DNA of 32,000 nt from a cyanobacterium endosymbiont of Epithemia turgida isolate EtSB Lake Yunoko (GCF_000829235.1 NZ_AP012549.1:1170001-1202000); one strand, 5' to 3'. Positions 773 through 18,334 are shown, counted from the stretch's first letter. Notes: generated from the letters alone by a model not told the origin. Made by a program: numbers and translations.

Positions 773-965
773 ATATTCACATCGACTAAAATGATTGATG
801 ATGACTTTAGTACCTAAAAAATTATTGACTATTAATACTAGTTCTTCCAAGCTATGAGTATGATTAGTTTATAACTAACGACTTCTAAAATTCCTATTCT
901 GAACTATGCTCTGATACTCCCAAAAACCTTCGATTTTGGCTTATTGTAGTGTTATCACAGCAAGT

Positions 966-2105
966 CGAGAAGAGCCTTAGTGTTTTCTTTTACTAAAACT
1001 AGTGTACGTCAACGGGAAATTATCGAAATAGTTATCGGTAATAGCTGGCACTATATACGAGGGCTATTGACATTAGGAAAAGTTGATAAACCTCAAGTTC
1101 CCCCACCAGAGGTTTTACGAAATATTTTAGTAGAATTTGGTCCATTTTATCTAAAATAAGGACAAATTATTAGTACTTGTCCTGATATTCTTTCTCCTAG
1201 TTATATTAGAGTGTTAACTGCTCTACAAGCTAATGTTCCTCCTGTGTGTTGGTCTAAAATCGAAGAAATACTTTTCCAAGAATTACAAAAACTTTTAGAG
1301 AATATATTTCAAACCATTAATCATGAACCAATTGCAGCCGGTTCTATTGCTCAAATTTATCGGGACACTTTAATCAATGGAACCGAAGTGGCAATTGAAA
1401 TCCAACGGACAGGAATTGATATAATTGTTGCCGAAGATATTGCTTTAATTGAAGGAATTACTTAGTTAGTTTCTTTCACGGAGTTTAAACAAAATTATGA
1501 CATTGTTAAATTAATAGACGAGTTTGCTCGAGCTATTAAGTCAGAATTAAATTTTACCCAAGAGGGACACTATACCGAGTACATCAGCCGAAATTTAGCA
1601 ACGAGTAGCTGATTCGATACTAAACTAAATATTTAGTCGTTCCTCAAGTATATTGGGAAGTTAGCATGAAAAAAATTCTAGTTCTGGAATGGTTAAATGG
1701 TCAACCAATTCTTAATGTAAATTTCAGTATCACTCCTAGTCAGAAATCTCTTAAGAAGAGAAAACAAGAGATAACAACCTTACTATTTAGAGCTTTGATA
1801 TAAAATCTATTTATTTAAAAACTCCTCGGCAAATCGAGATATTATTAAATCGTTTATCCTCAGAAACTTTACAATGGAATTTGCGCATAAAAGAATTAAA
1901 TCTTCTAGGCTGTAGTGTTGATACTTCTGCTAATCGTCTATCTTGTAGTATCGTTTTAAGTTCATTAATTGTAGTAGTTGCTATTATTTATAATAATTCC
2001 AAAACTCAACAATTATATCTAATTAGTGTGGCTTTGTTTGCCGTAGCAAGTTTATTAGTAATGTGGTTACTTATTAGTATTTTAAGATCAGTACGTTTAA
2101 AGTAA
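966..2105 (+). pseudogene. ABC1/UbiB-family atypical kinase pseudogene (in-frame stops, frameshifts, internal deletion of the kinase core)
   Basis: Translation from ~980 reads RQREIIEIVIGNSW..LRNILVEFGPFYLK*GQIISTCPDILSPSYI..LQANVPPV..PIAAGSIAQIYR..EVAIEIQRTGID. This is the conserved ABC1 N-terminal half, broken by TAA at 1157-1159 (a Leu position in the KLGQ motif) and TAG at 1463-1465. The frame breaks repeatedly over 1600-1800. ORF 1881..2105 (NRLSCSIVLSSLIVVVAII..) matches the C-terminal transmembrane tail of cyanobacterial ABC1 proteins. Total length is ~1.1 kb versus ~1.7 kb expected, and the HADPHPGN core is absent. Confidence 0.8.
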
Positions 2106-3971
2106 ACGTTTTATTGTTTATAAAATTTTTTAAAAATAAAAACTAAGCTGTAATTTAGGTTAGATTACAATTAATTACCACTTATAATGTAAAAATATTA
2201 AATCATGTATATATGATTATACATTGCAAGGGAGAGCCTCCATAGATGGTTCAGGATTACTATGATAAATACAACTTTTTAAGCCAATGAGTATAACTAG
2301 TTTTTTATTCATAAATACTTGTAAATTTTTAGGTAATAAATTTAATAATTGATTACCTAAAGACTAATAATTTTCTACTAATTTTTTAAAAAATATAGAT
2401 AGTTAAGCAACTATAGAACTGTATATAAATTCTATTTTTATTTTTAGCTATGAGTTCATCTAAGTTTGAGGGCACGTTCAAAAAACTTCTACAAAATTAG
2501 AATTGTCAAATTATGACAATAAATTTCAGTATTTTAGTATATATTTAGCAGTACTATTCAACAGTACGTGGCGTATATACTATTTTTTTATTTATTTCAG
2601 CTTCTAAAAGATTAAAAACTAATCAATATTATTCTCTTTTTTTATCTCAAAAAAATCTACAACTCTAGCCTCTGAATAAACAGCTTTTTTTAAAAACCCT
2701 AAATCATATTTATATTCAAAATTTTTTTAAAAATCGCATAAATTTTTACTTTATTTCAATATTTTTCTATAAAATTTATTTCTGAACTATAAATTGAAAC
2801 AAAAAATAAGTATAATTATTATTTCAATTGTTTTGCTTTTATTTTAAATAAATAATTAATATTCATTAAATCATTGCAAATGATAATTACAGTATCTATT
2901 CTCTTGTTTTTCTCTTTATTTAAATATTTTTATTTAGAGTAGTTAATCTTTTATTAAGTTCATATATTTCTATTGTATTTAGTGATCTTTATTTTACTTA
3001 TTAGTTAATTTTATAATCTTTTTATGACCTACCTGCTTTATCTGAAATTCTTTTGAAATTTGTATGAAATGATGAAAATGATGAATTGACCGGTCATTAA
3101 ATTTATTTAAACTTCTATTTTCTTGTATTAAAGATAATATTTATACTCTTATTGTTACCCTAAGAAAATATTAAATACAAGTTTATTTACTATCATGTTG
3201 TCTGACTTTTTAGGTAGATTTATATCTAATAATCAATCTTTTTAAAAGTAAATTAATTTAAATTAATCTACTTACTTATTTTTTATATTCTAATTAAATG
3301 TTTACTTAGAAACAACTATATATTATTTTTAATATCTAGAAAAAATACTATTTTTTTAAGGCTAACTAATTAAATAGTTTATTGTTTAGTTTATTGTTTA
3401 TTTTAATATTTTTGTATAAAGTAAATATATCCTCCTACTACGTCATTATTTGGCCTGTCAATCCGGGAAAATAAATTCGTTGCATCATATCCTTCTAGCC
3501 ATAGAAACTTATTTATTAAAGTTAACATTGTTGATTGTTAAAGAAAAGATATTTAATCTGGTATAATTTTTTTTGTACTTAAGTCTTTTATTACCTTTCC
3601 TAAAGGGGGTTTATATTTTTATTATCTCTTACTTTACTAATTTTAGATATTATTGGAAATATAATAATTATTTACTATAAATTATTTAATAAGCTTTTTG
3701 ATAAATATTGGAAAATCTGATATGGTTAAAAGTTTTTTATTTTTTTTTCACCTTTGCTAAATTAAGAGATTTTTTGTCTTCCGTTTATACAATTTAACTT
3801 TCTGCTTATAACGATTGATATCACAAATCACTATTATCCACCAGTTATAATAATTCCATTGTTCTTGACATTGACTTTATGAATATCATCTTATTTATTT
3901 TTTTAACAAAAAAAGAAATATGATATTAAGTTGATAATCAATAGTTATTGGCATTTTGTCAGAATAAAAAA

Positions 3972-5084
3972 ATGAATTTAAATCGTCGTAAATTTTTAAT
4001 TACTAGTGGAGGTTTATGTGGGTTAAGAATTGCTTATTCAACCCATCCAGGATTAAGAAGTGAGAATATAAACTCTCAACTCCTATCTACCCCCATTCAA
4101 AAATACAAAGAGACCTCGATTTCTTACCCTGTAGCCGTTGCCCCTCCAGGATTATTTGCTCCTATACGAGGAGATACTAGAATTATTGTCATTAGCGATC
4201 TTAATAGTCAATATGGGTCTACTACTTATGAATCAGAAGTTAAACAAGCAATCACCCTTATTCCAGGATGGAAACCTAACTTAGTATTGTGTGGGGGGGA
4301 TATGATTGCTGGACAAAAAAAATCTCTTACTAAAACCCAAATTCAAGCCATGTGGTCAGCTTTTGATGCTAATATCAGTAATCCTTTACGTCATTTTAAT
4401 ATTCCCTTCGGGTTTACCATCGGCAACCATGATGGATCAGGAGCAATTTATCAAGGAAAATATACTTTTGCATCTGAAAGAGAATTAGCCTCAAATTATT
4501 GGAATCAACCGACCTCTAATCCGGGATTAGACTTTATTGATCAAGTTAATTTTCCTTTTTATTATAGTTTTATTCAAAATAATGTTTTCTATCTAGTTTT
4601 GGATGCTTCTACCCATATTATCTCCTCTGAGCAGTTAACCTGGATTAAAAAGAATTTAGCAAGTTCCATCGCACAAAAAGCTAGATTGAGACTGGTTATT
4701 GGTCATCTTCCTCTTTATCCTATAGCTGTAGGACGAAATGACGTAGGAAATTTTTTAAGTAATGGAGAAACATTACAATCAGTGTTAGAACAATATAGAG
4801 TGCATATTTATATTAGTGGACATCATCACGCCTATTATCCAGGAAAAAAAGGCCGATTAGAATTACTTCATATCGGTGTGTTGGGAGCAGGTCCCAGGAA
4901 GCTACTAAACAGTAATATCATTCCCAGCAAAACCTTAACAGTAGTTGATATTTATCTAAATTCTCAAACTATTAACTATACGACCTATGATATGAAGACT
5001 CTGGAAGTTGTCGATATTAAAACATTACCTAAATGCATTGGCAAAGTGCGGCGTAGAGATCTTATGGCTGGCTCAAATTCCTAA
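3972..5084 (+). CDS. Calcineurin-like metallophosphoesterase with a twin-arginine (Tat) signal peptide
   Basis: ORF 3948..5084. The ATG at 3972 gives MNLNRRKFLITSGGLCGL, which fits the Tat consensus RRxFL followed by a hydrophobic stretch. Metallophosphoesterase motifs present: ISDLN, GGDMIAG (GD), TIGNHD (GNHD), IGHLP, SGHHHAY (GHxH). Confidence 0.8.
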   Translation: MNLNRRKFLITSGGLCGLRIAYSTHPGLRSENINSQLLSTPIQKYKETSISYPVAVAPPGLFAPIRGDTRIIVISDLNSQYGSTTYESEVKQAITLIPGWKPNLVLCGGDMIAGQKKSLTKTQIQAMWSAFDANISNPLRHFNIPFGFTIGNHDGSGAIYQGKYTFASERELASNYWNQPTSNPGLDFIDQVNFPFYYSFIQNNVFYLVLDASTHIISSEQLTWIKKNLASSIAQKARLRLVIGHLPLYPIAVGRNDVGNFLSNGETLQSVLEQYRVHIYISGHHHAYYPGKKGRLELLHIGVLGAGPRKLLNSNIIPSKTLTVVDIYLNSQTINYTTYDMKTLEVVDIKTLPKCIGKVRRRDLMAGSNS

Positions 5085-5100
5085 TGGGAAATAAACAATC

Positions 5101-5133
5101 TACTAAGAGGTCAATAAAATTGACCTCTTAGTA
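5101..5133. terminator. Perfect 15-bp stem / 3-nt loop hairpin 17 nt after the phosphoesterase stop codon (candidate intrinsic terminator)
   Basis: tactaagaggtcaat-aaa-attgacctcttagta, every pair checked by hand. The downstream tract on the plus strand is A/T-rich (aaaattta) rather than a clean U-run. Confidence 0.45.
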
Positions 5134-5802
5134 AAATTTATAGTTCTACTAATTTGGCATTTAACTCATTATCATCAAAAGTCCATCGTTTCAATTATGA
5201 TGACTCAGAACAAGGCAATAAATCAAAAATCTCTCGTAACATATCATAAATGGCTTTATATGAAATCTGTACTTAATTATCAAAGACAATACTCGTTGTT
5301 GCTTGATAATCACAGTTTGAGGAATTACGCCATTATAATAGAACCCTGGTTCTTCAGGAGAAAAGTCACTTTAGGAAGAATGGAATCGACATTGAGTAGG
5401 TAAAATGTCACCAGCTCTGTTATAAAATCACTGCACTCAAGAAACAATAATAACAAATTGCTTACAATCTTGACTCTTACCAAGACAAAAAATTAAAGCC
5501 GTTGGCATTTGCTGTTTAAAACTATCAGTTAAGCTTAATTTCGTTGAAACCAGAGAACCATTTCTCCCATAGACAACACAAATATTGCCACCAAGAATAT
5601 CATCATCGATATTTGCCAAAACTGTGGAGGTTCCTCTGGTTATTAAAACTACTCCCATAGCTATGACAAGGATAAGACAAATTTTAATCTGAATTTTTTC
5701 GCCAGCAATTTTCTATTAGTTTTGATAAACGTCATGGTATTGAAACCCTTCGCTTTTAAGTTTAGTTAAAATAAAGTCACGAAAAATATTATAAGAAATC
5801 TT

Positions 5803-6267
5803 GTGACTCAGCAGCCAACTACAGCACAATCAACCTATCGAAAAATTCCCATACAGACAAAGTTTGCCAATAGCTACTACGCCATTTTAGGGCTTCATCC
5901 GTCCGCTTCCGCCGTCGAAATTCGAAGGGCTTATCGGGAGCTGAGTAAACTTTACCATCCCGATACCACGGACTTACCTTTAGAGACAGCTACAAAGCAA
6001 TTCCAAAAGCTTAATGAAGCCTATGGAACTCTAAGTAATCCTGAAGGGCGCTCACTCTACGATCTTAAAATTGGCTATTCTCGTCGGAATGTGATTCAAA
6101 CTTTTGACGATTGTCCCCAAAAAAAGGTTTGGGGAACTTCCCCATGTCCAAATTCAACTTCTTTTGATTCAAGTAATCGTTCTTTGTCAGCCGGAGAAAT
6201 TTTTGTTCTGTTTATTTTAGGATTAACTTTTGTAGGATGTATGCTCTTAGCGATCACTATAAATTGA
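5803..6267 (+). CDS. J-domain (DnaJ-like) protein with a C-terminal transmembrane helix
   Basis: YYAILGLHPSASAVEIRRAYRELSKLYHPDT..KLNEAYGTLSNPEGRSLYD is a canonical J domain with the HPD tripeptide. The C-terminus IFVLFILGLTFVGCMLLAITI is hydrophobic. The GTG start has no obvious SD, so the start is uncertain. Confidence 0.75.
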   Translation: MTQQPTTAQSTYRKIPIQTKFANSYYAILGLHPSASAVEIRRAYRELSKLYHPDTTDLPLETATKQFQKLNEAYGTLSNPEGRSLYDLKIGYSRRNVIQTFDDCPQKKVWGTSPCPNSTSFDSSNRSLSAGEIFVLFILGLTFVGCMLLAITIN

Positions 6268-6487
6268 AAAATGGCTCGCCGAAATTAGCCTAGATATCAG
6301 ATAATTAGCAGTCTGCTATCCTAAAGTAGAAACCATAAATGAAGAGATTATACGGATTCTTAAATACCCTCTAAGTTGCTAAGGGCTTGAATCGACTGTT
6401 TGTTCAAATTCTTTAGATATATTTAATAATGATCTTTTTTTTGAAACGAGACGAAGTGACTCATTTACTAATAAAATAATAATAAGG

Positions 6488-6517
6488 GGCTTGCTGTCCT
6501 TCCGAGAACTGCAAGCC
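6488..6517 (-). terminator. Candidate minus-strand terminator hairpin downstream of the cyAbrB gene
   Basis: ggcttgc(16 nt)gcaagcc forms a 7-bp GC-rich stem. On the minus strand it is followed by ccttattattattttatt (a T-rich tail). Confidence 0.3.
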
Positions 6518-6551
6518 GTGGTTTGATGTCGTTACCTTGATTGAAGTAGTA

Positions 6552-6596
6552 AGCGTTGTTTAGTCTAGCCTCTAAACGACGCTATTTTTTTATTTT
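6552..6596 (+). terminator. Rho-independent terminator (plus strand)
   Basis: agcgttgtttag-(8 nt loop)-ctaaacgacgct forms a 12-bp stem with one G-U pair. It is followed directly by atttttttatttt. Confidence 0.6.
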
Positions 6597-6633
6597 GTTA
6601 AGTCTAGGAAAACTGGATGAACTAACATTAGTT

Positions 6634-7020
6634 TTATTCTTCATAATCATCAAGTTCACCAAGTTGTCTGAGATGGATGTGCTTCCGCCCTAGGGTAATT
6701 TCAAATTCGTCCCCTGGTTGTAGACCCATTTTTTTTGTGTAAGCTGAACCAATCAAAAGGTTACCATTTGATTGCACACTAATTCTATAACTAGCCGAAC
6801 GGCCGCCTCTTCCCTGCCCTTCCGAAGAGCTATCTAATTCAATTCCTTCCGCATCAATTAAGGCGTTAAGAAATTTCATCATGTTGACTCGTTCTATACC
6901 ATTTTTAGTCTGGGTATAGTAGCCACAAGCTCTAGCTTTTTCTTCTTTACCGAGGTTACCTAGCTCTTTAACTTTTTCGACTAATGCTGTACCGGTCAGG
7001 GGTGTATCTTGACTCATCAA
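6634..7020 (-). CDS. cyabrB: Cyanobacterial AbrB-family transcriptional regulator (cyAbrB / CalA-like)
   Basis: The 128-aa protein has the clade-typical N-terminal region (LTGTALVEKVKELGNLGKEEKARACGYYT..ERVNMMKFLNALIDAEGI). It also has a C-terminal AbrB/SpoVT swapped-hairpin domain (YRISVQSNGNLLIGSAYTKKMGLQPGDEFEITLGRKHIHL). Confidence 0.9.
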   Translation of the reverse strand: MMSQDTPLTGTALVEKVKELGNLGKEEKARACGYYTQTKNGIERVNMMKFLNALIDAEGIELDSSSEGQGRGGRSASYRISVQSNGNLLIGSAYTKKMGLQPGDEFEITLGRKHIHLRQLGELDDYEE

Positions 7021-7331
7021 CTTAAACAGTAACTAAATGAATAATATGGTTGACAGATTAGAAATATAATATGACATCGAGCAACTCAAAAAGTGCCACG
7101 ATTGCTAACTATCTCCCCTTTCATTTTACACACAACAAGTAAACTTTATCTACCATATGACCAGATCAATAATAATCTATTGCTCTTGCTCTTTAAAGAA
7201 GAATCATCTACAGAATTTACAAATATTTGAGTCTCAGGGTTTTTGTTGAGAAGAACGTGTTATAAAATCAACAACGAACCCTTTAACAGTGCCTTACAGT
7301 CTACTTAAAACTAAGGGAACAAACTAACCAA

Positions 7332-7775
7332 ATGAAGTTAACAACTCGCAGTCATTATAGCGTTAAAGCCCTGCTGGATCTTAGCTTACAGCCGAACTAT
7401 GGTCCAACTTCAGTAAAAGCGATAGCAAGACGACAAAATTTACCGGCTCCTTACTTAGAAAAATTACTGATTGAAATGCGTCATTCTGGGTTAGTTAAGT
7501 CAGTGCGTGGTCCTCAAGGAGGCTATCAATTAGCATGTCAACCTAATCAAATTTCCCTAGGACAAATTCTGGATGCAGTTGAAGAAAAAAACCAACCTTT
7601 GTCAGGTTATCAGCCCGATCTTACGCAAGGATCAGATTGGGTTGCATTTAGTTTATGGAAGCGGCTTCATGAGAAACTTAAAGAGGCACTTTACAAGATT
7701 ACTCTTGCTGATCTTTATTATGATGCTCGCAGTTGGCAGGCTTCTCAAGGAGAAGCCACAAGTTTTGTGGTGTAA
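7332..7775 (+). CDS. Rrf2-family transcriptional regulator
   Basis: MKLTTRSHYSVKALLDLS....SVKAIARRQNLPAPYLEKLLIEMRHSGLVKSVRGPQGGYQLA is the Rrf2 winged-helix signature. The protein has only one Cys, so it lacks the three-Cys Fe-S ligand set of IscR/NsrR. Confidence 0.85.
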   Translation: MKLTTRSHYSVKALLDLSLQPNYGPTSVKAIARRQNLPAPYLEKLLIEMRHSGLVKSVRGPQGGYQLACQPNQISLGQILDAVEEKNQPLSGYQPDLTQGSDWVAFSLWKRLHEKLKEALYKITLADLYYDARSWQASQGEATSFVV

Positions 7776-8035
7776 AAGATTAATATTTAATAGTTAAAAA
7801 CTAATTAAGTTACTATGAAACTTGCTTTAATTTTTGTACTATAAGCTTACGCATTGATGTTAAATAGCATTTGACTCATAATCAAGATTGCTAAAATTTT
7901 TTAGAAAAAAAGGTTTTTAATAAATTAAATTACTGTGAACAGTTTAATAAGGATAATTAAGAAACAAATGTAAATAAAATTATAAACTTTAATAACCTCA
8001 CCAAAAAATAACTTAAGCTAGAAAATGATCAGATT

Positions 8036-9034
8036 ATGAAGACAAATCTAGAAGCAATTATTTTAGGGATAGCTGCCGTAATTGATTATAGAATAAGCGA
8101 GCCTAAAGAGTGGTGACATCCTGTACAAGGGATAGGATGTGCTATCTCAAGGTTAAGTAAAGTTGTAATCATCATTTGTCAAAGAAAATGGCAACGTCGC
8201 TGGTGAGTAATTCTACTAGAGTTAGAGATAATTCTTTGTAGTGAAACTACTAGTTAGATAATCGTTCATCTAGCTAAAAATATTCATTTCTTGTTAGTAA
8301 TTGTAGTACAAAATATTCTTTTAGCAAGTTGTTTTGCAGCCCGAAGTTTATGGTTTGCAACCAAAGCAGTTCTTTCTTCTTTAGTTGAAGGAAATATTAT
8401 AGTTGCGAGGGCTCAACTTGGTCAATAGATAGAAAGGGATACAGATAATCTCTCAGAAGAAATCTTACGCGCTATTTTAGAAACAGTTTTAGAAAATGCT
8501 GTCGATGGGGTAACAAGCACGTTGTTTTATGCAATTGTTGGGGCATTTTTTCCAAAAATTGGGTTGCTTCCTTTTGCATTGGGTTATAAAGCGAAGCGGT
8601 GAGGACCCTTGATTCAATGATTGGTTATAAAAAAGATACCTTTCAAGATTTAGGATAGTTTAGTGCAAAGTTGGAGGATTATTTAACTTGGTTTCCTTGT
8701 CGTTTGACCGTATTAACCTTAGCCTTAATATCAGGAAGACCCCTAGCTATATTATCAATTTGTCGTCGTAATACTCCGCACGATCCCAGTCCAAATTCTG
8801 GTTGGAGTGAATCTGTTTACGCAGCTATCCTATTTTAGGAGTTCAATTAGGGGATACCAATACTTACCAACGCAAATTAAAACACAAGCCAAGCCATTAT
8901 TAGGAGATTTCCTACACCCAATTACCCCAACAATTATCTATCAAGCTTTAAAATTAACTCAGATCTGTTTTCTTTTATGGTTAGGATTAGGAATAGTGAG
9001 CTTATTTTGTATAACAAATTTAACATTTTTTTGA
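8036..9034 (+). pseudogene. cbiB: Adenosylcobinamide-phosphate synthase pseudogene (CbiB in Salmonella naming, CobD in P. denitrificans naming)
   Basis: The reading from ATG 8036 carries CbiB-like segments: HPVQGIG, RDTDNLSEEEILRAILETVLENAVDGV, YKA..TLDSMIGYK, FSAKLEDYLTWFPCRLT, HDPSPNSGWSES, KPLLGD. It is interrupted by at least 5 in-frame stops (for example TGA after EW, TGA after RRW, TAG in LGQ*IERDT, TAG in LG*FSAKLED) and at least 2 frameshifts. ORF 8807..9034 is simply the last frame segment. Confidence 0.85.
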
Positions 9035-9229
9035 CCTTACTGCAAACCTTTATTTTTAAATCGTTAATTCTCTGTTTCTTAAAGTTTACTTGGCTGTCCC
9101 CACCGTATTTTGTTCAAGTTGATTGCACATCAGCCAAGTCCTTTATTAAAAGTTGGTTCTCACTGCTACCCGAAAATAGCTGTCGCCTAATCCAGGGAAA
9201 TTTAGATAATCACGGCTAAAAATCTGATA

Positions 9230-10132
9230 TTATTGTAATAATTTATGTTGAAGTTGGGAACTAGGAACTTAAGTTTTCACTAGTAAAAAATTAGCAGTAC
9301 TGGGGAACGTCTGTAATCCTTTAAGGTCTGATAATATTTTCAATAAACTTTTTTTGCTAGCAACTAACCAAGACCAAGTTTGCTGTTGAAACTCGTGATC
9401 ATTAATTACTGCCTCTCCCACAGCTGCCGCTAAGCTATTAACAGACCTCTCGCGATAATTACCATTGTTGGAGACGATAAGGATGGGCGATTATCCAAAT
9501 TTGGTGAGTAATCGTATAATCACTAAATTTGGATAATCGCCCATCATCGGAATTAAGCTTTGTTGCTCATGAGGGGGGAAAAAGTCCATAAAGGACTTAT
9601 AAACCACTACTAAAGCAAATTTTTCCAGTAAGGGTAATAAAATATCCCTATGAAATAACTTTCCTGTGGGATTATGGGGATTGTTGATGATCACTCCGCT
9701 CAATTGGGGGTTAACAGGGTCTAAGTTCAGAAAAAAGGTTTTTCTTTTCCAAGAGAAAGGGCAAGACTTTACCTTAGCACCAAATCCTTGTAGAGCGCGC
9801 CAATAGTCCCAAAAACCAGGAACTATTAAGTAAGTGAGCTTTAGATTAACTAATTCTCGGACTGCCCCGGTTAATAGTTCAGATGCTCCATTACTAGGAA
9901 CAATCCAATCAGGTGAGATGTTATGTAATTGTCCTAAGGCTAATCGCAATCGAAGATAATGGCGAGCAGGATAATGGGCAATAGCGGTTATTCCTTTCTA
10001 AAAAGCGTTAATCGCACTGTTGGGAGGTCCCAAAGGGTTAATACTAACAGAAAAATCTATAATAGAAGTGACTGGACAGCCTGCTTGATTCGCTGCCCAG
10101 GTTAAGTTTCCTCCATGGATAGGCCGTTTCAT
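9230..10132 (-). pseudogene. cobD: L-threonine-O-3-phosphate decarboxylase pseudogene (CobD in Salmonella naming, CobC elsewhere; class I/II aminotransferase fold)
   Basis: Minus-strand reading from ATG 10132 gives MKRPIHGGNLTWAANQAGC..IIDFSVSINPLGPP, then an in-frame TAG (plus-strand cta 9998-10000). ORF 9491..9949 follows in the same frame with NNPHNPTG, degenerate YKSFMDF (DEAFMDF expected) and LLTKFG* ending right after the PLP-lysine motif. Downstream homology continues in shifted frames (IIAHPYRLQQW, then SVNSLAAAVGEAVINDHEFQQQTW..STANFLLVKT*). Confidence 0.8.
9482..9545. repeat. Perfect 21-bp inverted repeat (about 26 bp with one G-U) inside the cobD pseudogene, at its premature stop
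   Basis: gatgggcgattatccaaattt (9482-9502) is the exact reverse complement of aaatttggataatcgcccatc (9525-9545). The arms extend inward through ggtga/tcact. The 12-nt centre is gtaatcgtataa. Confidence 0.9.
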
Positions 10133-10148
10133 TCTAATGGAATAACAC

Positions 10149-10430
10149 TTATGACTTGGGTGCAACTTTTTCCTTAAATAGTTTTCCAGCAGAAAATGCC
10201 GGAACCCTTGTCGCAGGAATTAACATTTTTTCGTTCGTTTTTGGGTTACGCCCTTCACGAGCTTTGCGATCGCGTGCCTCAAAAGAGCCAAAACCAACAA
10301 GAGTAACTTTATCATCTCCGGAGACTGCTTCCATAATGGTTTCAATGGTGGCCGAGATAACTGCCTCAGCCTGCTTTTTGGTAACATCGGCTCTATCTGC
10401 TACTGCATCAATCAATTCGCCTTTATTCAT
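10149..10430 (-). CDS. hup: DNA-binding protein HU
   Basis: MNKGELIDAVADRADVTKKQAEAVISATIETIMEAVSGDDKVTLVGFGSFEARDRKAREGRNPKTNEKMLIPATRVPAFSAGKLFKEKV is a full-length HU/IHF fold with the RNPxT arm. I chose the internal ATG at 10430 over the longer ORF start at 10490 because the extra 20 aa have no HU counterpart. Confidence 0.92.
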   Translation of the reverse strand: MNKGELIDAVADRADVTKKQAEAVISATIETIMEAVSGDDKVTLVGFGSFEARDRKAREGRNPKTNEKMLIPATRVPAFSAGKLFKEKVAPKS

Positions 10431-10960
10431 ACGAGAATCTCCCTTTGTTCTTAATTTGATAGTTTTTAGGATAAATTTCTTCAGTGACATTTTGCCATGA
10501 GAAATTTTTCTAAGGAGCCAATTAGAGAAATATTAGTTTGGGTAAATTCCCAAAATCCTCATAGGCTAAATGTTTCACTGCATTATTCTAAGCCCTATTT
10601 GTCTTCTTTGGTATCGCTTAAACCTTTAATTTCTGTAGATTTTGTCGGTTTTCTGGGAAATTTATTTCCTAAACTTGCCCATTGTGCATTGAAGTATTTG
10701 AGAGAAAACTAGCAGCAATGAAGTTAGAGTTTAAATAATTAGATTGTAAACGAATATAAATTTTAAAAGTTAAAACTAAATAGATTTTAAGTGAGTATCT
10801 TTAAATAAATAGTCAAAAAAAATTACTTTAGATCTCTATATTAGAGTTGTATAAATTAATTTTATATAACTCTAATTATTATTAAATAATATTATTTTGT
10901 TTGTTAAATATTATTTAAATAATTTTCTAATTTTTATTAGACACAATCACCCTTATATTA

Positions 10961-11003
10961 ATTTATTTATAGACTCTAAGTCATTTATTTATAGACTCTA
11001 AGT
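10961..11003. repeat. Tandem direct duplication, 22-bp period, 2 copies
   Basis: atttatttatagactctaagt occurs at 10961-10981 and again, identical, at 10983-11003. One nucleotide (c) separates the copies. Confidence 0.9.
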
Positions 11004-11146
11004 TATTTAAAAATATAAATTTAATTATTTTTAAATATTGCTTAAGTTTAATTTAAACTAAACTATTTTTACTTATTTAGTAATAATCACGAACAGTTAC
11101 AGTATCTGTTCTGTTTTTTAGAAAATTATATAATTTTTATCTTCCG

Positions 11147-11189
11147 TAAATAATCTATTTAGAAAAATAATTTCTAAATAGATTATTTA
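11147..11189. repeat. Perfect 19-bp-arm AT-rich inverted repeat (hairpin or palindromic site), 5-nt centre
   Basis: taaataatctatttagaaa-aataa-tttctaaatagattattta, all 19 pairs checked by hand. Confidence 0.85.
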
Positions 11190-11289
11190 ATAATTTTAGC
11201 TAATCTACAATTTCTTTGAATTTACATTATCTGAGATGGAAACATGATACTTTTACTTTTGTTTTCATCTTGTAAAAAATTTTGGGGTA

Positions 11290-11826
11290 ATGAGTGAAAT
11301 TCAATAATTAAGGACTTGTTATTGTTAATACCAGTAATGGGAAAGACAAAACCACAGCCGCTTTTTGGATGCTTATAAGACCCCTTGGACATGGGTTCCG
11401 AGTGGCTGTCGTCCAATTCATTAAAGGAACTTGGGAACTTGCAGAAAAAGAGGTACTAAGTCGGTGGGGGACCGACTAGAATTTTATGCTATGGGGGAAG
11501 GATTTACATGGGAAACCCAGGATCAAGAACGAGATATTGAGAATGTCCAAGTTGTCTGGGAAAAAGGGTTATCTTTTATTTGTAACAAAAAGTATCGATT
11601 AGTGTTACTCGATGAAATTAATGTTGCCTTACAATTGGGCTATCTCGATGTAAATACGGTTTTAAAAGGACTGTCCCAAAAACTAAACTGTCCACTGCTC
11701 ATGTTATACTGACAGGAGGCGGTACACCCCTTGATAGAAAGGGCAGACTTAGTGACGTAAATGACCTTAATTAAACATCCTTTTTAAAAACAAGGGATTA
11801 GAAATCAACCAGGGATTGAATTTTAA
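11290..11826 (+). pseudogene. cobO: Cob(I)yrinic acid a,c-diamide adenosyltransferase pseudogene (CobO/CobA/BtuR family)
   Basis: Fragments in shifting frames: [42 protein letters not shown] (P-loop GNGKGKTTAA degraded to SNGKDKTT), GEGFTWETQD, YRLVLLDEINVAL, then LIERADLVT*MTLIKHPF*KQGIRNQPGIEF*. There is a stop 5 codons after the ATG, at least one frameshift near 11460, and at least 3 in-frame stops in the 3' part. Confidence 0.85.
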
Positions 11827-11832
11827 TTTTAG

Positions 11833-12363
11833 TCAATTTGAAGGTAAGCAAGCATCTAGGATGCGTTGGTCGTTGTCGCTGAGATCACCAAGACGATGGT
11901 ATCCCTCTAACGTAACTTCTGAGGATCGTCTGCTGTTGGTGGCTACTGGAGAGACAACCTGTAAACCGATGGCATAATTGTATTTCATGCCATCATGAGG
12001 ATCGATAATAGAAAGATTTATTTGACGACTATCAAAACTACCTGAAAAACAGTTAAATTCTGATCTCGGCATATAAAATGCCCCAATAACTTCCCCTTTT
12101 TGAACTTTAAAGACTAAATATTCTTGTCCCATAGTTTCGGGTTCTGGTGATCGTCCATACAGATAAACTCCATTAGCTAAACCACTAATTCGCGTTAAGG
12201 AAACTTCTTCAGATGAACTTTCTTGACTATGAGATGAATTTTCTTCAGCTGCCTGTACAAAATTACCACTAATTGTCCCTGAACTAATAAGTAGACTCAG
12301 AGATGCTATAGATAACAATCGGAGATGTGTGAGTGAAAATAAGAATGTTGGAACAAAAGACAT
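11833..12363 (-). CDS. Hypothetical secreted protein (N-terminal signal peptide)
   Basis: Intact 176-aa ORF. The N-terminus MSFVPTFLFSLTHLRLLSIASLSLLISSGTISGNFVQA-AEE looks like a Sec signal. The mature part has normal composition (GVYLYGRSPEPETMGQEYLVFKVQKGEVIGAFYMPRSEFNCF). I cannot name a family. Confidence 0.6.
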   Translation of the reverse strand: MSFVPTFLFSLTHLRLLSIASLSLLISSGTISGNFVQAAEENSSHSQESSSEEVSLTRISGLANGVYLYGRSPEPETMGQEYLVFKVQKGEVIGAFYMPRSEFNCFSGSFDSRQINLSIIDPHDGMKYNYAIGLQVVSPVATNSRRSSEVTLEGYHRLGDLSDNDQRILDACLPSN

Positions 12364-12783
12364 TTGATTTCCCTGAACATATGAACTAATATCAATTACA
12401 AGAAATATGCTTGTTTAAGCTAATATCGAAACTGGGAGGAAGTACTCATTCGGGACAATCCTTTGTGCCATTATCAGATAATACTGTCGAACTTGTTGTA
12501 TCCAAATATGCTTAACTAAACCATTTTCCCTGGAAAAACAGAATTGATAGAAACACCATATCTGCTCGGTTCAACTTATTTTTAAAGCAATTATCTAACT
12601 GCCCCCCAAAACACTGTTGGGAGCTGACGTTAATTAGCTAAAAAAGTTTCCTCACTACCATTTTCATTGTGCAGTAGTTTTCTAGAATAGGAGAACTTTT
12701 TTCTTAAGTTTTAATAAATGATCAATCAATGGACAAGATTTTGATTAACTGTACAATTAATTTTTATTAAATAATTTTCTTTG

Positions 12784-12813
12784 CAGAAAAAAGTGATCGT
12801 TAAGAAGACGACC
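12784..12813 (-). terminator. Weak candidate intrinsic terminator downstream of the sigma-factor gene
   Basis: On the minus strand, ggtcgt-cttctta-acgatc forms a 6-bp stem with one G-U. It is followed by acttttttctg. Confidence 0.3.
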
Positions 12814-12867
12814 GCCTTAACCCATCTAAGCTGATGTTTGTAGAATATCAAATGACTAGGAATTGAT

Positions 12868-13854
12868 TTAGCTAGCTGCCAAATATTTCTTGATATTTGT
12901 TTTACTTCTACGTAAGTAAGCTAAGGCTTGATGTTCTAACTGAAGAACTCTCTCACGACTAATATTGAGCTTTTTAGCAATTTTAGTTAGGGATAGTTCT
13001 TTCCCATCCTCCAATCCGAAGCGCAAAGTAAGGATCATCTGTTGCTGTAGAGTTAACTCCTTCATTAAATCTCTCAAGTCTTTACGTAGTAACTCTTGAA
13101 TAGTGTAGTTGTCAGGAGAAACACCTCGATCTTCTAGAAGTTCTAAAAGTTCTGTGTCTTGATTATCCCCAACTCTGACATCTAAAGAAATAGGTTGACA
13201 CGCTATACTTAAATACTCCCAAATTTTAGAAGCTTCGAGATTTAAAACTGCACCAATTTCGGTAGGAGTAGCACTGCGACCTAATTCTTGAGACAGTTCT
13301 CGTTGGATTTTCTTTATTTTGTTGAGTTTTTCAGTAATATAAATAGGCAGGCGAATAGTGCGAGCCTGTTGGGCGATTGCTCGAGTAATTGCTTGACGAA
13401 TCCACCAATAAGCGTAAGTAGAGAACTTATAGCCTTTGGTTGGATCAAATTTCTCAACTCCTCGCGCTAACCCTAAACTTCCTTCTTGGATAAGATCGAG
13501 AAATTCCATGTTGCGCTTCTGATACTTCTTGGCAATGGCAACCACTAGGCGCAAGTTGCCTTCAATCATTTTACGCTTTACCCGATTTCCTTGGTCAATA
13601 GTTTTTTTTAGGTCTGATTGGCTAAGGTTGACAGCTTTTGCCCACTCTTTAAAACTTGGTTCTTGTCCTGCATCTTGAGTAAGTTGCTCTTTTATTTCCA
13701 ACAAAGACATCATTCTTTGTACTTGTTTCCCATATATAATTTCTTGCTCATGGGTTAACAGAGGCACCCGTCCAATTTCATGCAGATAAGTCCGCACCAT
13801 ATTTGTCGAGTACATAGGCTGTTTCGTTTGTGAGTTGACATTAGCAGTAGGCAT
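12868..13854 (-). CDS. RNA polymerase sigma factor, sigma-70 family, cyanobacterial group 2 type
   Basis: VRTYLHEIGRVPLLTHEQEI (region 1.2), IAKKYQKRNMEFLDLIQEGSLGLARGVEKFDPTKGYKFSTYAYWWIRQAITRAIA (regions 2.1-2.4, RpoD box), regions 3 and 4.2 (LSLTKIAKKLNISRERVLQLEHQAL). At ~328 aa it has no long region 1.1, so it is group 2 rather than SigA. I chose the start at ATG 13854 (AAGGAG lies 13 nt upstream); the ORF track's TTG at 13887 is the alternative. Confidence 0.9.
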   Translation of the reverse strand: MPTANVNSQTKQPMYSTNMVRTYLHEIGRVPLLTHEQEIIYGKQVQRMMSLLEIKEQLTQDAGQEPSFKEWAKAVNLSQSDLKKTIDQGNRVKRKMIEGNLRLVVAIAKKYQKRNMEFLDLIQEGSLGLARGVEKFDPTKGYKFSTYAYWWIRQAITRAIAQQARTIRLPIYITEKLNKIKKIQRELSQELGRSATPTEIGAVLNLEASKIWEYLSIACQPISLDVRVGDNQDTELLELLEDRGVSPDNYTIQELLRKDLRDLMKELTLQQQMILTLRFGLEDGKELSLTKIAKKLNISRERVLQLEHQALAYLRRSKTNIKKYLAAS

Positions 13855-14276
13855 TGGTAGGTTATAGCTCCTTAAAACCTGCTTCAAAGTCTTTCACTAC
13901 ACTTTAGTGTTTTCCCCAAAATAGAGGAAATGCACATGAATACACTAGAAGAAACAACAAATGTGTAATCGATATGACTTTGATTTTACTCTAAACTAGC
14001 TCATTCATTTAGATGATGGCAATTATCAAACTGTTTATCCCTAATTCAGGGAAATAGAGTGACTTCAACCACTTTCAGTAAAGATTATAATTGTCACTTT
14101 AAAAGTCAACTTCAAGTAAACTTTAGGCATCTATTCACTAATAATGACGTAAAAATCAATATAAAGAAAGATTAAAATTTAGGGTGATTTCCGAACCTAA
14201 CTTGAAATGATTCACAATAAATAACCCTTAGCTAATAATTAATATAATTTACAAGAAGTATATTAATCTTAATGAG

Positions 14277-14307
14277 ATCAATAAAGCTTTTCAAAAGCTT
14301 TATTGAT
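14277..14307. repeat. Perfect 31-bp palindrome (15-bp arms, 1-nt centre) containing two HindIII sites
   Basis: atcaataaagctttt-c-aaaagctttattgat, all 15 pairs verified. It lies ~420 bp upstream of the sigma gene start and ~440 bp upstream of the tRNA gene. Confidence 0.85.
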
Positions 14308-14748
14308 AAGGACTTCAAGTAATTACTCGTTATCAACAGAAGATCGAACAAAAGTTAGTGAAACTAATTGATAAAATTTTACTTCGTAATAATTATTGGA
14401 GCGAACCGATTAACGACCAACTAAAAAACATCTATCAGATTTAATTTGAGAAAAATTGAAGCGTTTGAGACTATTATGTTCAATTTTAAAATTAACCGAT
14501 TACTTATTACCTGTTTACCTCAAAAATATTCTCCCAATTGAGGTTAAAAAGAGAAGTTAACCTCGCTTCTTGATATGTCTAAACAAAAATTGTAGTCTTA
14601 TATTGTTGGCGGTTACCATTTCAGAGTTAGATAATCGTCAACTTTGTTGTGTTTTGACTTAGGTATTGAGAATAACAAAAGTATTTTTAAATCTTATATA
14701 ACTCATATACTCAATCAAATGATATGATTTTAAAAGGGGTTACCCCTT

Positions 14749-15083
14749 GGGGCTGTGGCTCAGTAGGATAGAGCAAGCGCCTCCTGAAGTGTCGGGCATC
14801 ATGGACGGAAACGCCATAGATGGATGTGGTCAAATTCAAGGAAGCCTAAGTCTTCTTAAAGATAAGGTAATCTTGAGCCAAGCTCTAAGTCCCTGGTAGA
14901 GAAGGTGCAGAGACTGGTTGTAGGTCGCCAAAGGGACACAAAAACAATAGGGCTAATCATGTCTACAACATAACGGCCACCACCTAAGGACATCAAGTCT
15001 AGGGTGAAGGAATAGTCCAGAGAGTGAGGAAACTCACACTAATCTGAAGCGCTAGGTCGCCGGTTCGAATCCGGCCAGTCCCG
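14749..15083 (+). tRNA. tRNA-Arg(CCU) gene interrupted by a group I intron (exon 1 14749-14785, exon 2 15047-15083)
   Basis: Joined exons give a 74-nt cloverleaf. Acceptor ggggctg/cagtccc (one G-U), D arm gctc-agtaggata-gagc with G18 G19 A20, anticodon arm agcgc-ctCCTaa-gcgct, variable loop aggtc, T arm gccgg-ttcgaat-ccggc, discriminator G. CCA is not encoded. Confidence 0.9.
14786..15046 (+). ncRNA. Group I intron (IC3-like, tRNA-intron type), 261 nt, no internal ORF
   Basis: It is inserted right after U36 (5' splice site follows a U) and ends in G (..aatctG). It contains the conserved IC3 core strings known from the Azoarcus and cyanobacterial tRNA introns: ggtcaaattc..gaagcctaag, aatcttgagccaagc, gaaggtgcagagactgg, ccaccacctaagga, gaaggaatagtccag. 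Confidence 0.88.
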
Positions 15084-15402
15084 TTAACCTGTCAGTAAGT
15101 CTCTATCAAACAGTAACTATAGAGAGAATAATATAATATTATTCTAAGCGTTATCCATAATTGAGCACTCAATTTTTTGGTTTAAGCTCAGATACGAGTC
15201 ACAAACATCGATGGTTTATGGCTCATGATTAACTTTTATGTGAATTTTTGTAAAGATCTAATGACTTTAATATAGTGTTTCTCAGGAATGGGAAGATTGA
15301 GGTATACCCTAATTTATTTCCTGTTGCCTAAAATTTAAAAAGTTTTGTATTTCATCAAATATGCTTTACGGCTATCCCAATTAGTTTGATAGTTCCATTA
15401 TT

Positions 15403-15999
15403 GTGTTCATGTTATTAAAAATTAATCCCAAAAAACACCGTATAAAAGTTCTTTCATCTCGTTGGAGGTATAGGTTGTTACCTCTAATTTCTCTGGTAGG
15501 TATTAGTCTGTGGGCAGGTTGTAAAGAATTACAAAGTTATATGGTGCAACCTGAAGCGATCTTTGTTTTAGGAGGACACGAAGAACGCGAACACTTTGCC
15601 GCTCAATTGGCTAGTCGACATCGCGATCTCCCTATTTGGGTGTCTTCTGGAAGCCCTCAAAGCTATGCTAAAAAGATTTTTAGGGAAGCCGGTATTTCCA
15701 GTGCTCGCCTTTATCTAGATTACCAGGCACGGGATACTGTAACTAACTTTACAACCCTAGTAGATACCTTTAAAAAACAAGGCATTGATAGTGTTTATCT
15801 AGTTACTTCCGCTAATCATATGAACCGTGCTCGCTTTATTGGGGAGATTGTTTTTGGCACTCGGGGGATTATACTTAAACCTATAGCTGTTGAGTGTGAT
15901 CGCCCTCCTGAACCCTTCAAAAAAATCCTCAGAGATGTAGCTAGATCACTGCTGTGGTTGGGTACGGGCAAAACAGGAGAAACTTTGATTGTTCCTTGA
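15403..15999 (+). CDS. DUF218 (YdcF/ElyC/SanA-like) domain protein with an N-terminal membrane anchor
   Basis: IFVLGGHEEREHFAAQL...PIWVSSG....AGISSARLYLDYQARDTVTNFT....GIDSVYLVTSANHMNRA matches the DUF218 core. The N-terminal LLPLISLVGISLWAG is hydrophobic. ATG 15409 is an alternative start. Confidence 0.75.
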   Translation: MFMLLKINPKKHRIKVLSSRWRYRLLPLISLVGISLWAGCKELQSYMVQPEAIFVLGGHEEREHFAAQLASRHRDLPIWVSSGSPQSYAKKIFREAGISSARLYLDYQARDTVTNFTTLVDTFKKQGIDSVYLVTSANHMNRARFIGEIVFGTRGIILKPIAVECDRPPEPFKKILRDVARSLLWLGTGKTGETLIVP

Positions 16000-16503
16000 A
16001 ATTAAATTCTTGGCGGTATTTTTTAAAAGTCTGTTGCCAAATGTTTTGGGGTTGAAGCTCTGTTCTTTCGGGGAGACTTTGTGTGTTATTATAGTGTTGT
16101 GTTAATATGTATGAAGTATCGATAAAGTCCTTTTTTAGAAGATTAATTTAAAGACTTTGTAACCGACGATAGCTGGGAAGCTCCGCTCCTTCTGAGACGT
16201 ATTCTTCCATAGAGGAACTCTGCCCAGTCAGTGTAGAATAAGAATTAATTGTTAGTTTGATTGTGAAGTGATTTAAACTATTAAACATTCAAAAAAGGAT
16301 GCATCCTGCTGTTGGGTAGTGAATGTTACGTCGGACTGGAATGCTTGTGGATTTAGAGTTTGGTGGAGGTGTAACTTGGAAAAACTATGTCTAGCTAAGA
16401 GAAGAATAAGCAAGAGTCCCTGTCGTTCTAAGGACAGGGAGTGTCAAAACAGAACGCTGTGCATTAGGTTCAAAGTAACAAACACAGGCTTAGGAGAGAT
16501 GTC

Positions 16504-17955
16504 GTGACACCCAGAGTTCGTATTGCACCAAGTCCCACTGGAAATCTACACATTGGAACTGCAAGGACAGCTATTTTTAATTGGTTATTTGCTCGTCATC
16601 ACTGGGGGCAATTTATTTTACGCATTGAAGATACGGATCTTGAGCGATCAAGACCAGAATATACGGAAAATATTAAATCAGGACTCACTTGGCTAGGGTT
16701 AAATTGGGATGAGGGTCCCTTTTTGCAAACCCAACGCTTTGATCTCTATTGTCAAGGAATTCAAACCTTACTTGATAAGGGGTTTGCTTATCGTTGCTAC
16801 TGTACTCCTGAAGAATTAGAAAAAATGCGGGAGGAACAAAAAGCAAACAATCAAGCTCCTCGCTATGATAACCGTCATCGTCATCTCACTGAAGCAGAAT
16901 GTCAAAAGTTTGAATCTGAAGGTAAAAAACCTGTTATCCGTTTTATTATCGATGATAACCGTGAAATTGTCTGGAATGACTTAATCCGAAATAAAGTAAC
17001 CTGGAGAGGAAAGGATCTCGGTGGGGATATGGCAATTACTCGCATCCCTCAACTTGAAGGAGAGTCATTTGGACAACCCCTATATAATCTAGCTGTGGTA
17101 GTTGATGACTTAGACATGAAAATTACCCATGTCATTCGGGGAGAAGATCATATTGCCAATACAGCAAAACAGATTTTACTTTATGAAGCGTTAGGGAAAA
17201 CAGTTCCAGATTTTGCTCATACCCCCCTTATTTTAAATCAGGAGGGAGGAAAACTGTCTAAACGCGACGGAGCATCATCTATTGATGACTTCCGTAAAAT
17301 GGGTTTTTTACCCGATGCTCTCGCCAATTATATAATGCTCTTGGGTTGGACTCCCCCTGACTCCACTAAGGAAATTTTTACTTTAAGTGAGGCCGCGAAA
17401 GAATTTAGTTTAGAAAGGGTAAATAAAGCGGGGGCAAAATTTGATTGGGGTAAACTAGATTGGATTAATAGTCAATATCTCCATCAAATTCCAGCCTCGG
17501 AATTAGTTGAGCTAGCTTTCCCCTATTGGAAAGAAGCGGGTTATGAAGTTAATCTGGAAAGTGATCGTCCTTGGTTAGAACAGTTAGCAGCTCTAATTGT
17601 CCCCAGTTTAACTAGGTTAACTGATGTAATAAAAGAGAGCCGTTTATTGTTTGGCAACACACTTAGTTATAGTAATGAAGCTCTAGAACAATTGCGAAAA
17701 GAGGGAGTCAAAGATATCATACAAGCTGTGGTTGATAATTTAGCTAATTATCCTCAGTTAAGTGAAGACAATGTAAAGGAGATTATCAGGCAAGTTACCG
17801 TAGATTTTAAGATCAAAAAGGGTTTAATTATGCGCTCTCTCAGAGCCGGTTTAATGGGTGAATTACATGGTCCTGATTTAATTAAATCTTGGTTTTTATT
17901 ACACCAAAAAGGATGGGATATAATCCGTTTAAAAGAAAGCTTAAGTCAAATCTAG
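16504..17955 (+). CDS. gltX: Glutamyl-tRNA synthetase
   Basis: [28 protein letters not shown] (HIGH-type motif), [21 protein letters not shown] (KMSKS-type motif), full length 483 aa. It has a GTG start with aggag 8 nt upstream. Confidence 0.95.
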
Positions 17956-17979
17956 AACAGATAAATTCTTGATTTTGGT

Positions 17980-18012
17980 AGGAGCGTAATTTATTACATC
18001 TCCTTTAGTTTT
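17980..18012 (+). terminator. Weak candidate terminator after gltX
   Basis: aggag-c-gtaat-tt-attac-at-ctcct is an imperfect two-part stem. It is followed by ttagtttt and begins 25 nt after the stop codon. Confidence 0.35.
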
Positions 18013-18299
18013 AAAAGTTAACGTTCGAGTTTTTATTAATTTGATTAAATATTTTTTAATCTTGACTTGAGAAAAAGTGATTCTGGAATATCTTGTAAAG
18101 CAGATAAGTCTTTTTTGCGGAGTTGACAGCTTTAGGATTAAAGAAAAAATAAACCTATTTATGTATTTTCTTCAGAAATTGACTCTGATAGTAGAAAACC
18201 TGTTAGTTAAATTTTTGAAAAAAACCTTCAATAATTTTACTGAAGTAGCAGAGAAATAAATCTTTAATCATAATTTTTATCTGCTTAATTTTTCTGTAT

Positions 18300-18334
18300 A
18301 ATATTTAATATTTAATATTTAATATTTAATATTT
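18300..18334. repeat. Heptanucleotide microsatellite (AATATTT)x5
   Basis: Five exact tandem copies, counted by hand. Confidence 0.95.

Follow-up and report, generated by a model that had tools for sequence, protein, structure and literature searches.

The spheroid body, or diazoplast, of the diatom Epithemia turgida (EtSB) is a nonphotosynthetic, N2-fixing cyanobacterial endosymbiont related to Crocosphaera, with a genome under reduction that was reportedly described by Nakayama et al. in 2014. Here, we analyze a 32-kb stretch of this genome (NZ_AP012549.1, positions 1170001 to 1202000; referred to as the window) in which three vitamin B12 pathway genes, cbiB, cobD, and cobO, surround hup, the gene for the nucleoid protein HU. 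We conclude that the three genes are almost certainly nonfunctional remnants of the pseudocobalamin pathway, which selection ceased to maintain in the common ancestor of the endosymbionts of Epithemia sensu stricto.

B12 status is the largest metabolic difference reported among the N2-fixing endosymbionts of rhopalodiacean diatoms, and it matters for the question of whether a corrinoid is supplied by the endosymbiont or has to be given to it. Nakayama and Inagaki (2017, Sci Rep 7:13075; PMC5638926) reported that EtSB is unable to make vitamin B12, with 14 of 17 pathway genes pseudogenized or undetected, and that the spheroid body of Rhopalodia gibberula retains all 17. In the same study, the EtSB metH gene (ETSB_0394) is intact, no BtuCD-F transporter is present, and Table S3 gives pseudogene status to EtSB cobO (stop, truncation, frameshift) and to the gene that it names cobD(cbiB) (stop, frameshift). 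Abresch et al. (2024, ISME J; PMC11131595) found the B12 pathway to be the most substantial difference among spheroid-body genomes: it is complete in the endosymbionts of R. gibberula and Rhopalodia gibba and "almost entirely missing" in those of E. turgida and Epithemia adnata, while metH is retained and has no B12-independent alternative. The vitamin form that has been lost is the cyanobacterial one, pseudocobalamin (PMC11131595, PMC12903740). A 2026 study in BMC Genomics (PMC12903740) adds that queG is retained, that the ribonucleotide reductase is cobamide independent, and that the supply of the cofactor is "a mystery"; metE is absent according to the published whole-genome inventories (PMC5638926, PMC11131595, PMC12903740). 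Finally, a 2026 preprint (bioRxiv 10.64898/2026.03.19.712447) extends the loss to the endosymbionts of Epithemia sensu stricto. The decay of the three genes, the loss of the pathway as a whole, and the inference of B12 auxotrophy are all already in print, since 2017 and with several later confirmations. To these we add a map of the individual lesions, evidence that places the gene deaths before the divergence of EtSB and the E. adnata endosymbiont with decay continuing since, and a direct demonstration of neutral evolution.

The locus and its intact counterpart

The window is AT rich (GC content of 1-kb bins, 20 to 41%), and its coding is sparse: only 22 open reading frames (ORFs) are at least 90 amino acids long. 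Between positions 8036 and 11827, no long ORF spans any of cbiB, cobD, or cobO; six-frame translation of this region yields pieces of CbiB, CobD, and CobO peptides that jump between frames, with stops in between. Profile searches (NCBIfam) were run on stitched translations in which stops were masked.

As the main reference, we used the intact collinear locus of the Rhopalodia gibba 17Bon1 endosymbiont (CP067995; sequence L083), which was compared codon by codon. This sequence is collinear with window positions 1 to 18132 at ~89 to 90% nucleotide identity, and its gene order is Rrf2, cbiB (328 amino acids), cobD (354 amino acids), hup (93 amino acids), cobO (205 amino acids), a 176-amino-acid ORF, and a sigma factor, all intact. 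A four-way alignment comprised the EtSB window, the R. gibba endosymbiont, the E. adnata endosymbiont (CP076462; sequence L086; ~96 to 98% nucleotide identity to the window), and L002, a contig from run SRR35386110 that is 98.06% identical to the window over 2.8 kb and does not extend to cobO. In a collection of species-representative genomes, the nearest HU genes belong to free-living Crocosphaera/Cyanothece (91%), and free-living relatives then served as outgroups for cobD and hup. The features of the locus are as follows.

8036..9034, plus strand: cbiB pseudogene (adenosylcobinamide-phosphate synthase), assigned by a TIGR00380 match and alignment to the R. gibba endosymbiont
9114..10132, minus strand: cobD pseudogene (L-threonine-O-3-phosphate decarboxylase), assigned by a TIGR01140 match and synteny with the R. 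gibba endosymbiont
9482..9545, no strand: near-perfect 64-nucleotide palindrome inside the cobD remnant, at a 28-bp deletion just past the pyridoxal phosphate (PLP)-lysine codon
10149..10430, minus strand: hup, intact gene for the HU nucleoid protein (93 amino acids), assigned by HU/IHF family hits (PF00216)
11309..11310, no strand: junction of a 599-bp EtSB-specific deletion; the segment is present in the R. gibba endosymbiont (L083, 13516 to 14114) and the E. adnata endosymbiont
11310..11827, plus strand: cobO pseudogene (ATP:cob(I)alamin adenosyltransferase, CobA/CobO/BtuR), 5' truncated, assigned by a TIGR00708 match

Lesions in cbiB, cobD, and cobO

An earlier note on this stretch, made from the sequence alone, had described cbiB, cobD, and cobO as pseudogenes around an intact hup. 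For cbiB, both the extent it gave (8036 to 9034, plus strand) and the broken state hold. The stitched translation scores 255 bits against TIGR00380 (cutoff, 165.9), covers profile positions 2 to 299 of 305 (family TIGR00380, PF03186), and is 82% identical to the intact 328-amino-acid CbiB of the R. gibba endosymbiont in a protein search; at the nucleotide level the remnant and that gene (L083, 10001 to 10987) are 90.5% identical. Relative to this orthologue, the frame is closed by five stops and three frameshifting insertions. The stops lie at codons 27, 57, 74, 131, and 207 (window positions 8114, 8204, 8255, 8426, and 8656) and arose by TGG>TGA (codons 27 and 57), TGG>TAG (codons 74 and 207), and TAT>TAG (codon 131). 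The insertions, at 8589, 8825, and 8885, are each 5 bp long and each a tandem copy of the adjacent pentamer; there is also an in-frame 3-bp deletion at 8454. Judged from its reading frame, cbiB is best described as a pseudogene of the CbiB family and not as a functional member.

The best profile for the cobD remnant is TIGR01140 (E = 5.7e-52), at 176.9 bits, below the cutoff of 290.55 (class I/II aminotransferase fold). The remnant is syntenic with and 90.7% identical in nucleotide sequence to the intact R. gibba endosymbiont gene (354 amino acids; L083, 11067 to 12131), and the orthologue in the R. gibberula endosymbiont is annotated as L-threonine-O-3-phosphate decarboxylase. The multiple stops and frameshifts reported earlier are present, but the extent proposed then, 9230 to 10132, was too short: the remnant continues for ~115 bp more, to 9114. 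Its four stops are at codons 45, 234, 299, and 312 (window positions 10000, 9461, 9271, and 9232), the first from CAG>TAG, the next two from CAA>TAA, and the last from AAA>TAA. Three deletions remove 28 bp at ~9498, 5 bp at ~9448, and 13 bp at ~9163, the last of them lying between two direct repeats of TGAGAACC. The PLP-lysine codon itself is kept (LTKF), and a net 28-bp deletion follows directly, so that the sequence reads LTKFG and then a stop, two codons on; the earlier note had correctly placed a stop right after this motif. The C-terminal half beyond the motif is not intact, with the 28-bp loss, three further stops, and two more frameshifting deletions.

The 28-bp deletion coincides with the palindrome at 9482 to 9545, whose arms are perfectly complementary over 21 nucleotides (93% over 29 nucleotides) and whose predicted DNA fold energy is −26.6 kcal/mol (z = −10.6). 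The right arm is missing from the R. gibba endosymbiont gene. Compared with that gene, the 43 nucleotides after AAATTT in the window have been exchanged for the reverse complement of the upstream GATGGGCGATTATCC. L002 has the identical palindrome, and the 28-bp cobD deletion is present in the E. adnata endosymbiont too. From this arrangement, we infer that the event may be better read as a template-switch (quasi-palindrome) mutation than as a simple deletion.

The stitched cobO translation scores 181.8 bits against TIGR00708 (cutoff, 167.75; family TIGR00708, PF02572). As with cobD, the stops and frameshifts described earlier were found and the boundaries (11290 to 11826) were not, as the remnant spans 11310 to 11827. 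The 599-bp deletion took the start codon, ~33 codons, and the upstream region. Downstream of the junction are a 1-bp deletion at 11465, a 5-bp tandem duplication at 11680, a 5-bp deletion at 11726, and stops at codons 184 and 193 (window positions 11758 and 11785). The P-loop reads GKDKT in place of GKGKT, as the earlier note had it, through a Gly-to-Asp change (GGA>GAC) that is common to the E. adnata endosymbiont. The remnant has neither an intact P-loop nor a complete ORF with a start codon.

We also considered a cobalamin riboswitch within the 599-bp segment upstream of cobO that is missing from EtSB. This candidate was rejected: an Rfam scan of the R. gibba endosymbiont returned no cobalamin riboswitch at gathering level or at E ≤ 1, its sole hit being a spurious snoRNA (E = 0.19). 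The spacer between hup and cobO is AT rich and contains more hairpins, at 11147 to 11189 (a perfect 19-nucleotide inverted repeat with a 5-nucleotide loop) and at 10840 to 10876 (a 16-nucleotide repeat, 94%), which could be terminators or by-products of AT-rich decay.

Lesions shared among Epithemia endosymbionts

Most of these lesions recur in relatives of EtSB. The cbiB stops at codons 57 and 207 and 5-bp insertions at codons 186 and 263, together with all three cobD deletions and the cobD stops at codons 45, 234, and 312, are present in EtSB, L002, and the E. adnata endosymbiont. In cobO, EtSB and the E. adnata endosymbiont have in common the 1-bp and 5-bp deletions, the stop at codon 184, and the P-loop change. 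Other lesions are private. Found only in EtSB are the 599-bp deletion, the 5-bp insertion at 8885, the 3-bp deletion at 8454, and the stops at cbiB codon 131 and cobO codon 193; the E. adnata endosymbiont alone has a cobO start changed from ATG to GTG, stops at codons 4 and 101, and 5-bp and 12-bp insertions; and L002 alone has cbiB stops at codons 18 and 153 and one 1-bp deletion. Because the majority of lesions recur in the separately sequenced L002 and E. adnata endosymbiont, they are real and not sequencing errors. Since they are common to the Epithemia endosymbionts, the alignment places the deaths of cbiB, cobD, and cobO before the divergence of EtSB from the E. adnata endosymbiont; inactivation is not a recent event in EtSB alone, and each lineage is still decaying on its own.

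Eight of the 11 stop-creating substitutions run in the GC-to-AT direction (TGG>TGA/TAG, CAA/CAG>TAA/TAG, and GAA>TAA), an excess that is expected under AT-biased mutation. All four 5-bp frameshifting insertions in cbiB and cobO (8589, 8825, 8885, and 11680) are tandem duplications of adjacent pentamers. Taken together, these observations are best explained by a sequence of events in which the pathway escaped selection in the ancestor shared by the Epithemia sensu stricto endosymbionts, after which AT-biased point mutations gave rise to stop codons and slippage-type indels (such as 5-bp tandem duplications, direct-repeat deletions, and one template switch) shifted the frames. Each descendant lineage then went on gaining lesions of its own, and the essential hup between the remnants remained under purifying selection.

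Further five-base-pair duplications occur at window positions 1619 and 16180 and, in the E. adnata endosymbiont, at sites aligned to window positions 5659 and 11763. Among indels between the window and the R. gibba endosymbiont, 5 bp is the second commonest size after 1 bp, with 11 real events, 8 of them in a tandem-repeat context; among outgroup-polarized, lineage-specific insertions in EtSB and the E. adnata endosymbiont (~15 kb), 4 of 9 are 5-bp duplications, a small sample. DNA-repair enzymes are reported to be missing from these endosymbionts (PMC12903740). It seems unlikely, on the sequences compared here, that the recurrent 5-bp duplications and the template switch reveal an undescribed mutational signature of spheroid-body genomes; such a signature, if true genome-wide, would indicate a specific defect in replication or repair that drives gene inactivation in early organelle formation. 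At present, the 5-bp pattern and the template-switch event are curiosities on small numbers.

Selection on the remnants

Relative to the R. gibba endosymbiont, the ratio of nonsynonymous to synonymous substitution rates (dN/dS) is 0.31 to 0.44 for the remnants versus 0.055 to 0.24 for hup, rrf2, the 176-amino-acid ORF, and the sigma factor, with similar dS in remnants and neighbors except for a lower value in rrf2 (0.085). In a relative-rate test with outgroups, each remnant has 16 to 28 private amino acid changes on the window branch against 2 to 11 on the R. gibba endosymbiont branch (P < 0.01 each); for hup, the counts are 0 and 1 to 2. A cleaner test is the comparison of EtSB with the E. 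adnata endosymbiont, since the dead state is present in both. There, the three remnants pooled give a dN/dS of 0.87 (39 nonsynonymous and 13 synonymous substitutions), which does not differ from 1 (P = 0.62), whereas nine intact neighbors give 0.38 (P = 4e-5); the contrast between the two sets is significant (Fisher P = 0.04). The remnants now evolve neutrally and their neighbors are constrained.

Breakage is also concentrated on the B12 genes. Of 15 genes that are intact in the collinear R. gibba endosymbiont stretch, the window has 4 broken, namely, the three B12 genes and an ABC1/UbiB-type kinase gene, and the presence of all three B12 genes among these four is more than expected by chance (Fisher P = 4/455 = 0.009, calculated by hand).

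The gene between the remnants is preserved. The hup ORF covers positions 1 to 89 of 90 in the HU-alpha and HU-beta profiles, has no stop or indel in any of the four endosymbiont sequences (EtSB, L002, E. adnata, and R. gibba), and encodes a protein that differs from that of the R. gibba endosymbiont at two residues (dN/dS, 0.055). It is a full-length, intact member of the HU/IHF family under purifying selection, in agreement with the lesion-free gene of the earlier note. The adjacency of hup and cobD is found in free-living Crocosphaera and Nostoc loci as well, which shows that the arrangement is ancestral. In the orthologue tables of PMC5638926, the entry for DNA binding protein HU (RGRSB_0767) reads "not found / Absent from Epithemia turgida SB." This entry is probably a miss by the orthology pipeline of that study, because the ORF is intact in the window and the exact 93-amino-acid protein is on record for EtSB.

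Alternative explanations

Could the stops and frameshifts be sequencing or assembly errors in genes that are truly intact? The earlier reading came from a single assembly, AT-rich, low-complexity genomes can gather homopolymer errors, and one lesion, the 1-bp deletion at 11465, does sit in a G run. However, the Logan assembly of SRR29904087 is 100% identical to the window over 13,665 bp, and L002, CP076462, and the Logan assembly of the latter (L087) carry most of the lesions, including the 28-, 13-, and 5-bp deletions and the 5-bp duplications. Most lesions, moreover, are substitutions or multibase indels rather than homopolymer slips. The earlier note had allowed for such errors; with independent assemblies carrying the lesions, we regard them as an extremely improbable explanation. 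There is also next to no chance, in our judgment, that the genes still function through a recoded stop (for example, UGA read as Trp, a recoding that occurs in some tiny symbiont genomes), programmed frameshifting, or split-gene products. In favor of this reading, Trp codons were the origin of four of the five cbiB stops (TGG>TGA in two cases), and all three Epithemia-type sequences keep a cobD fragment of 152 codons open. Recoding of UGA as Trp was rejected as a rescue of cbiB: the remaining stops are TAG and TAA, beyond rescue by any one recoding, the frameshifts persist, and TGA terminates the ancestral cbiB and cobD as well as the intact 176-amino-acid neighbor (11833 to 12363). The three genes together contain 10 frameshifting indels; cobO lacks a start codon and has a Gly-to-Asp P-loop, cobD is missing the conserved segment after the PLP lysine, and the remnants' dN/dS is close to 0.87. 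Nor does the open cobD fragment look like a retained functional ORF, since substitutions between the window and L002 show no deficit within it (6 of 13, over 45% of the length).

A further possibility is that the loss is only local and the pathway works, with functional copies elsewhere in the endosymbiont genome or in the diatom nucleus, from which the products would be imported. The sequence that we inspected is 32 kb long, and protein import has been documented for the related UCYN-A nitroplast, according to the account in PMC12903740. Against this stand three published whole-genome inventories in which the pathway is nearly all missing from the E. turgida and E. adnata endosymbionts and second copies are unreported. 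The authors of PMC11131595 also doubt that the host supplies intermediates, since diatoms have no known ability to make cobalamin or pseudocobalamin. We therefore consider a purely local loss very unlikely.

Our own alignments show the lesions, their recurrence in three endosymbiont sequences, and neutral evolution; pathway-wide loss, the retention of metH and queG, and the absence of metE and btuCDF come from published genomes. Several points weigh against reading cbiB, cobD, and cobO as remnants of an abandoned pathway. The claim that there is no second copy, and the status of metH, metE, and the btu genes, rest on published inventories, our own scan having covered 32 kb. The dN tables of PMC5638926 suggest that EtSB evolves faster than the Rhopalodia endosymbionts genome-wide; for this reason the relative-rate asymmetry is not diagnostic alone, and the argument rests on the lesions and on the dN/dS between EtSB and the E. 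adnata endosymbiont. In that last comparison, cobO alone has a dN/dS of 0.48, on only 16 substitutions.

With these points taken into account, nonfunctional remnants in a genome-reducing endosymbiont remain by far the best description of the three genes. Most of what the earlier note had put forward about the pathway is borne out. Its proposal that the pathway had been released from selection in a symbiont fits the source of the sequence (EtSB), the pooled dN/dS of 0.87 from the substitution test that it had suggested, and the published loss of 14 of 17 genes. Frameshift-aware alignment to orthologues, another of its suggestions, confirmed the lesions, though against an endosymbiont relative (R. 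gibba). The inventory of pathway genes and importers, the choice between metH and metE, and the type of ribonucleotide reductase are all in print and favor its interpretation (PMC5638926, PMC11131595, PMC12903740). It had left three outcomes for the organism: auxotroph, salvager, or B12 independent. The first two stand; the third is not favored, because metH and queG are retained (PMC12903740). The endosymbiont would thus need to obtain a corrinoid or methionine via its host. How the retained MetH and QueG are supplied is a question that our finding does not advance, since the pseudogenes, the loss of the pathway, and the inference of auxotrophy were already published.

Other features of the window

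The fourth broken gene, for the ABC1/UbiB-family kinase (window 980 to 2105), is a pseudogene with a 529-bp deletion, a 5-bp duplication, and three in-frame stops; its counterpart in the R. gibba endosymbiont is intact (549 amino acids; L083, 2304 to 3953). RGRSB_0759 is listed as "not found" in EtSB in PMC5638926, in agreement with the broken gene. A DnaJ-domain protein (window 5803 to 6267) has 154 amino acids in EtSB and the E. adnata endosymbiont versus 169 in the R. gibba endosymbiont, the 3' end of the gene having been cut off by a 214-bp deletion at ~6260; its dN/dS between EtSB and the E. adnata endosymbiont is 1.56, on only six substitutions. For the sigma-factor ORF, a TTG start was discarded: a look-up of the exact protein was empty, and the true start is a downstream ATG that gives a 328-amino-acid protein on record.

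A group I intron (RF00028; Rfam, 74.8 bits) lies at 14749 to 15083 (intron, 14773 to 15039) and is conserved in the R. gibba and E. adnata endosymbionts. Folded by eye, its flanking exons form a tRNA with the anticodon loop CUCCUAA, which would be tRNA-Arg(CCU) and not the usual cyanobacterial host, tRNA-Leu(UAA); ARAGORN reported no tRNA over the window. Public annotations call a 50-amino-acid ORF over the intron region, which is probably spurious. Two adjacent intact ORFs (25516 to 26550 and 27218 to 28105) encode an agmatine-deiminase-like protein (PAD_porph) and a carbon-nitrogen hydrolase, a pair that resembles an agmatine-to-putrescine route and may represent metabolism retained in a reduced genome. 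Kilobase-scale stretches at 2000 to 4000, 18000 to 19000, 26000 to 27000, and 29000 to 30000 have a GC content of only 20 to 25% and no ORF of at least 90 amino acids; the first aligns to R. gibba endosymbiont DNA, most of which has no gene calls. These stretches probably represent former genes in advanced decay, which fits the low coding density reported for spheroid-body genomes.

Comparison with known systems

Among free-living cyanobacteria, the cobamide auxotroph Synechococcus sp. PCC 7002 resembles EtSB in having a B12-dependent MetH without making the cofactor, as described in the account given in PMC12903740. According to the same account, it takes the cofactor from the environment, whereas EtSB has no BtuCD-F transporter (PMC5638926).

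The spheroid bodies of R. gibba 17Bon1 (CP067995) and R. gibberula (RGRSB_0765 to RGRSB_0768) have the gene order of the window. Unlike in EtSB, the four genes are intact there (328, 354, 93, and 205 amino acids), and the pathway is reported to be complete.

EtSB as published in PMC5638926 is the same genome with the same genes, and the lesion types in its Table S3 equal those in the window. The published gene order (ETSB_0806 to ETSB_0808 and ETSB_0812 to ETSB_0816) agrees with the window flanks. Two differences concern detail: the tables of that study give lesion types per gene without the positions of individual lesions, and threonine-phosphate decarboxylase falls outside its 17 genes, appearing only as "not found" in the orthologue table.

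In the spheroid body of E. adnata 19Bon2 (CP076462), the locus is syntenic with the window; cbiB, cobD, and cobO are dead there too, and hup is intact. It shares with the window four cbiB lesions, six cobD lesions, and four cobO changes. Although it keeps the 599 bp with the cobO 5' end that EtSB has lost, its start codon is GTG, a stop follows at codon 4, and it has extra lesions of its own.

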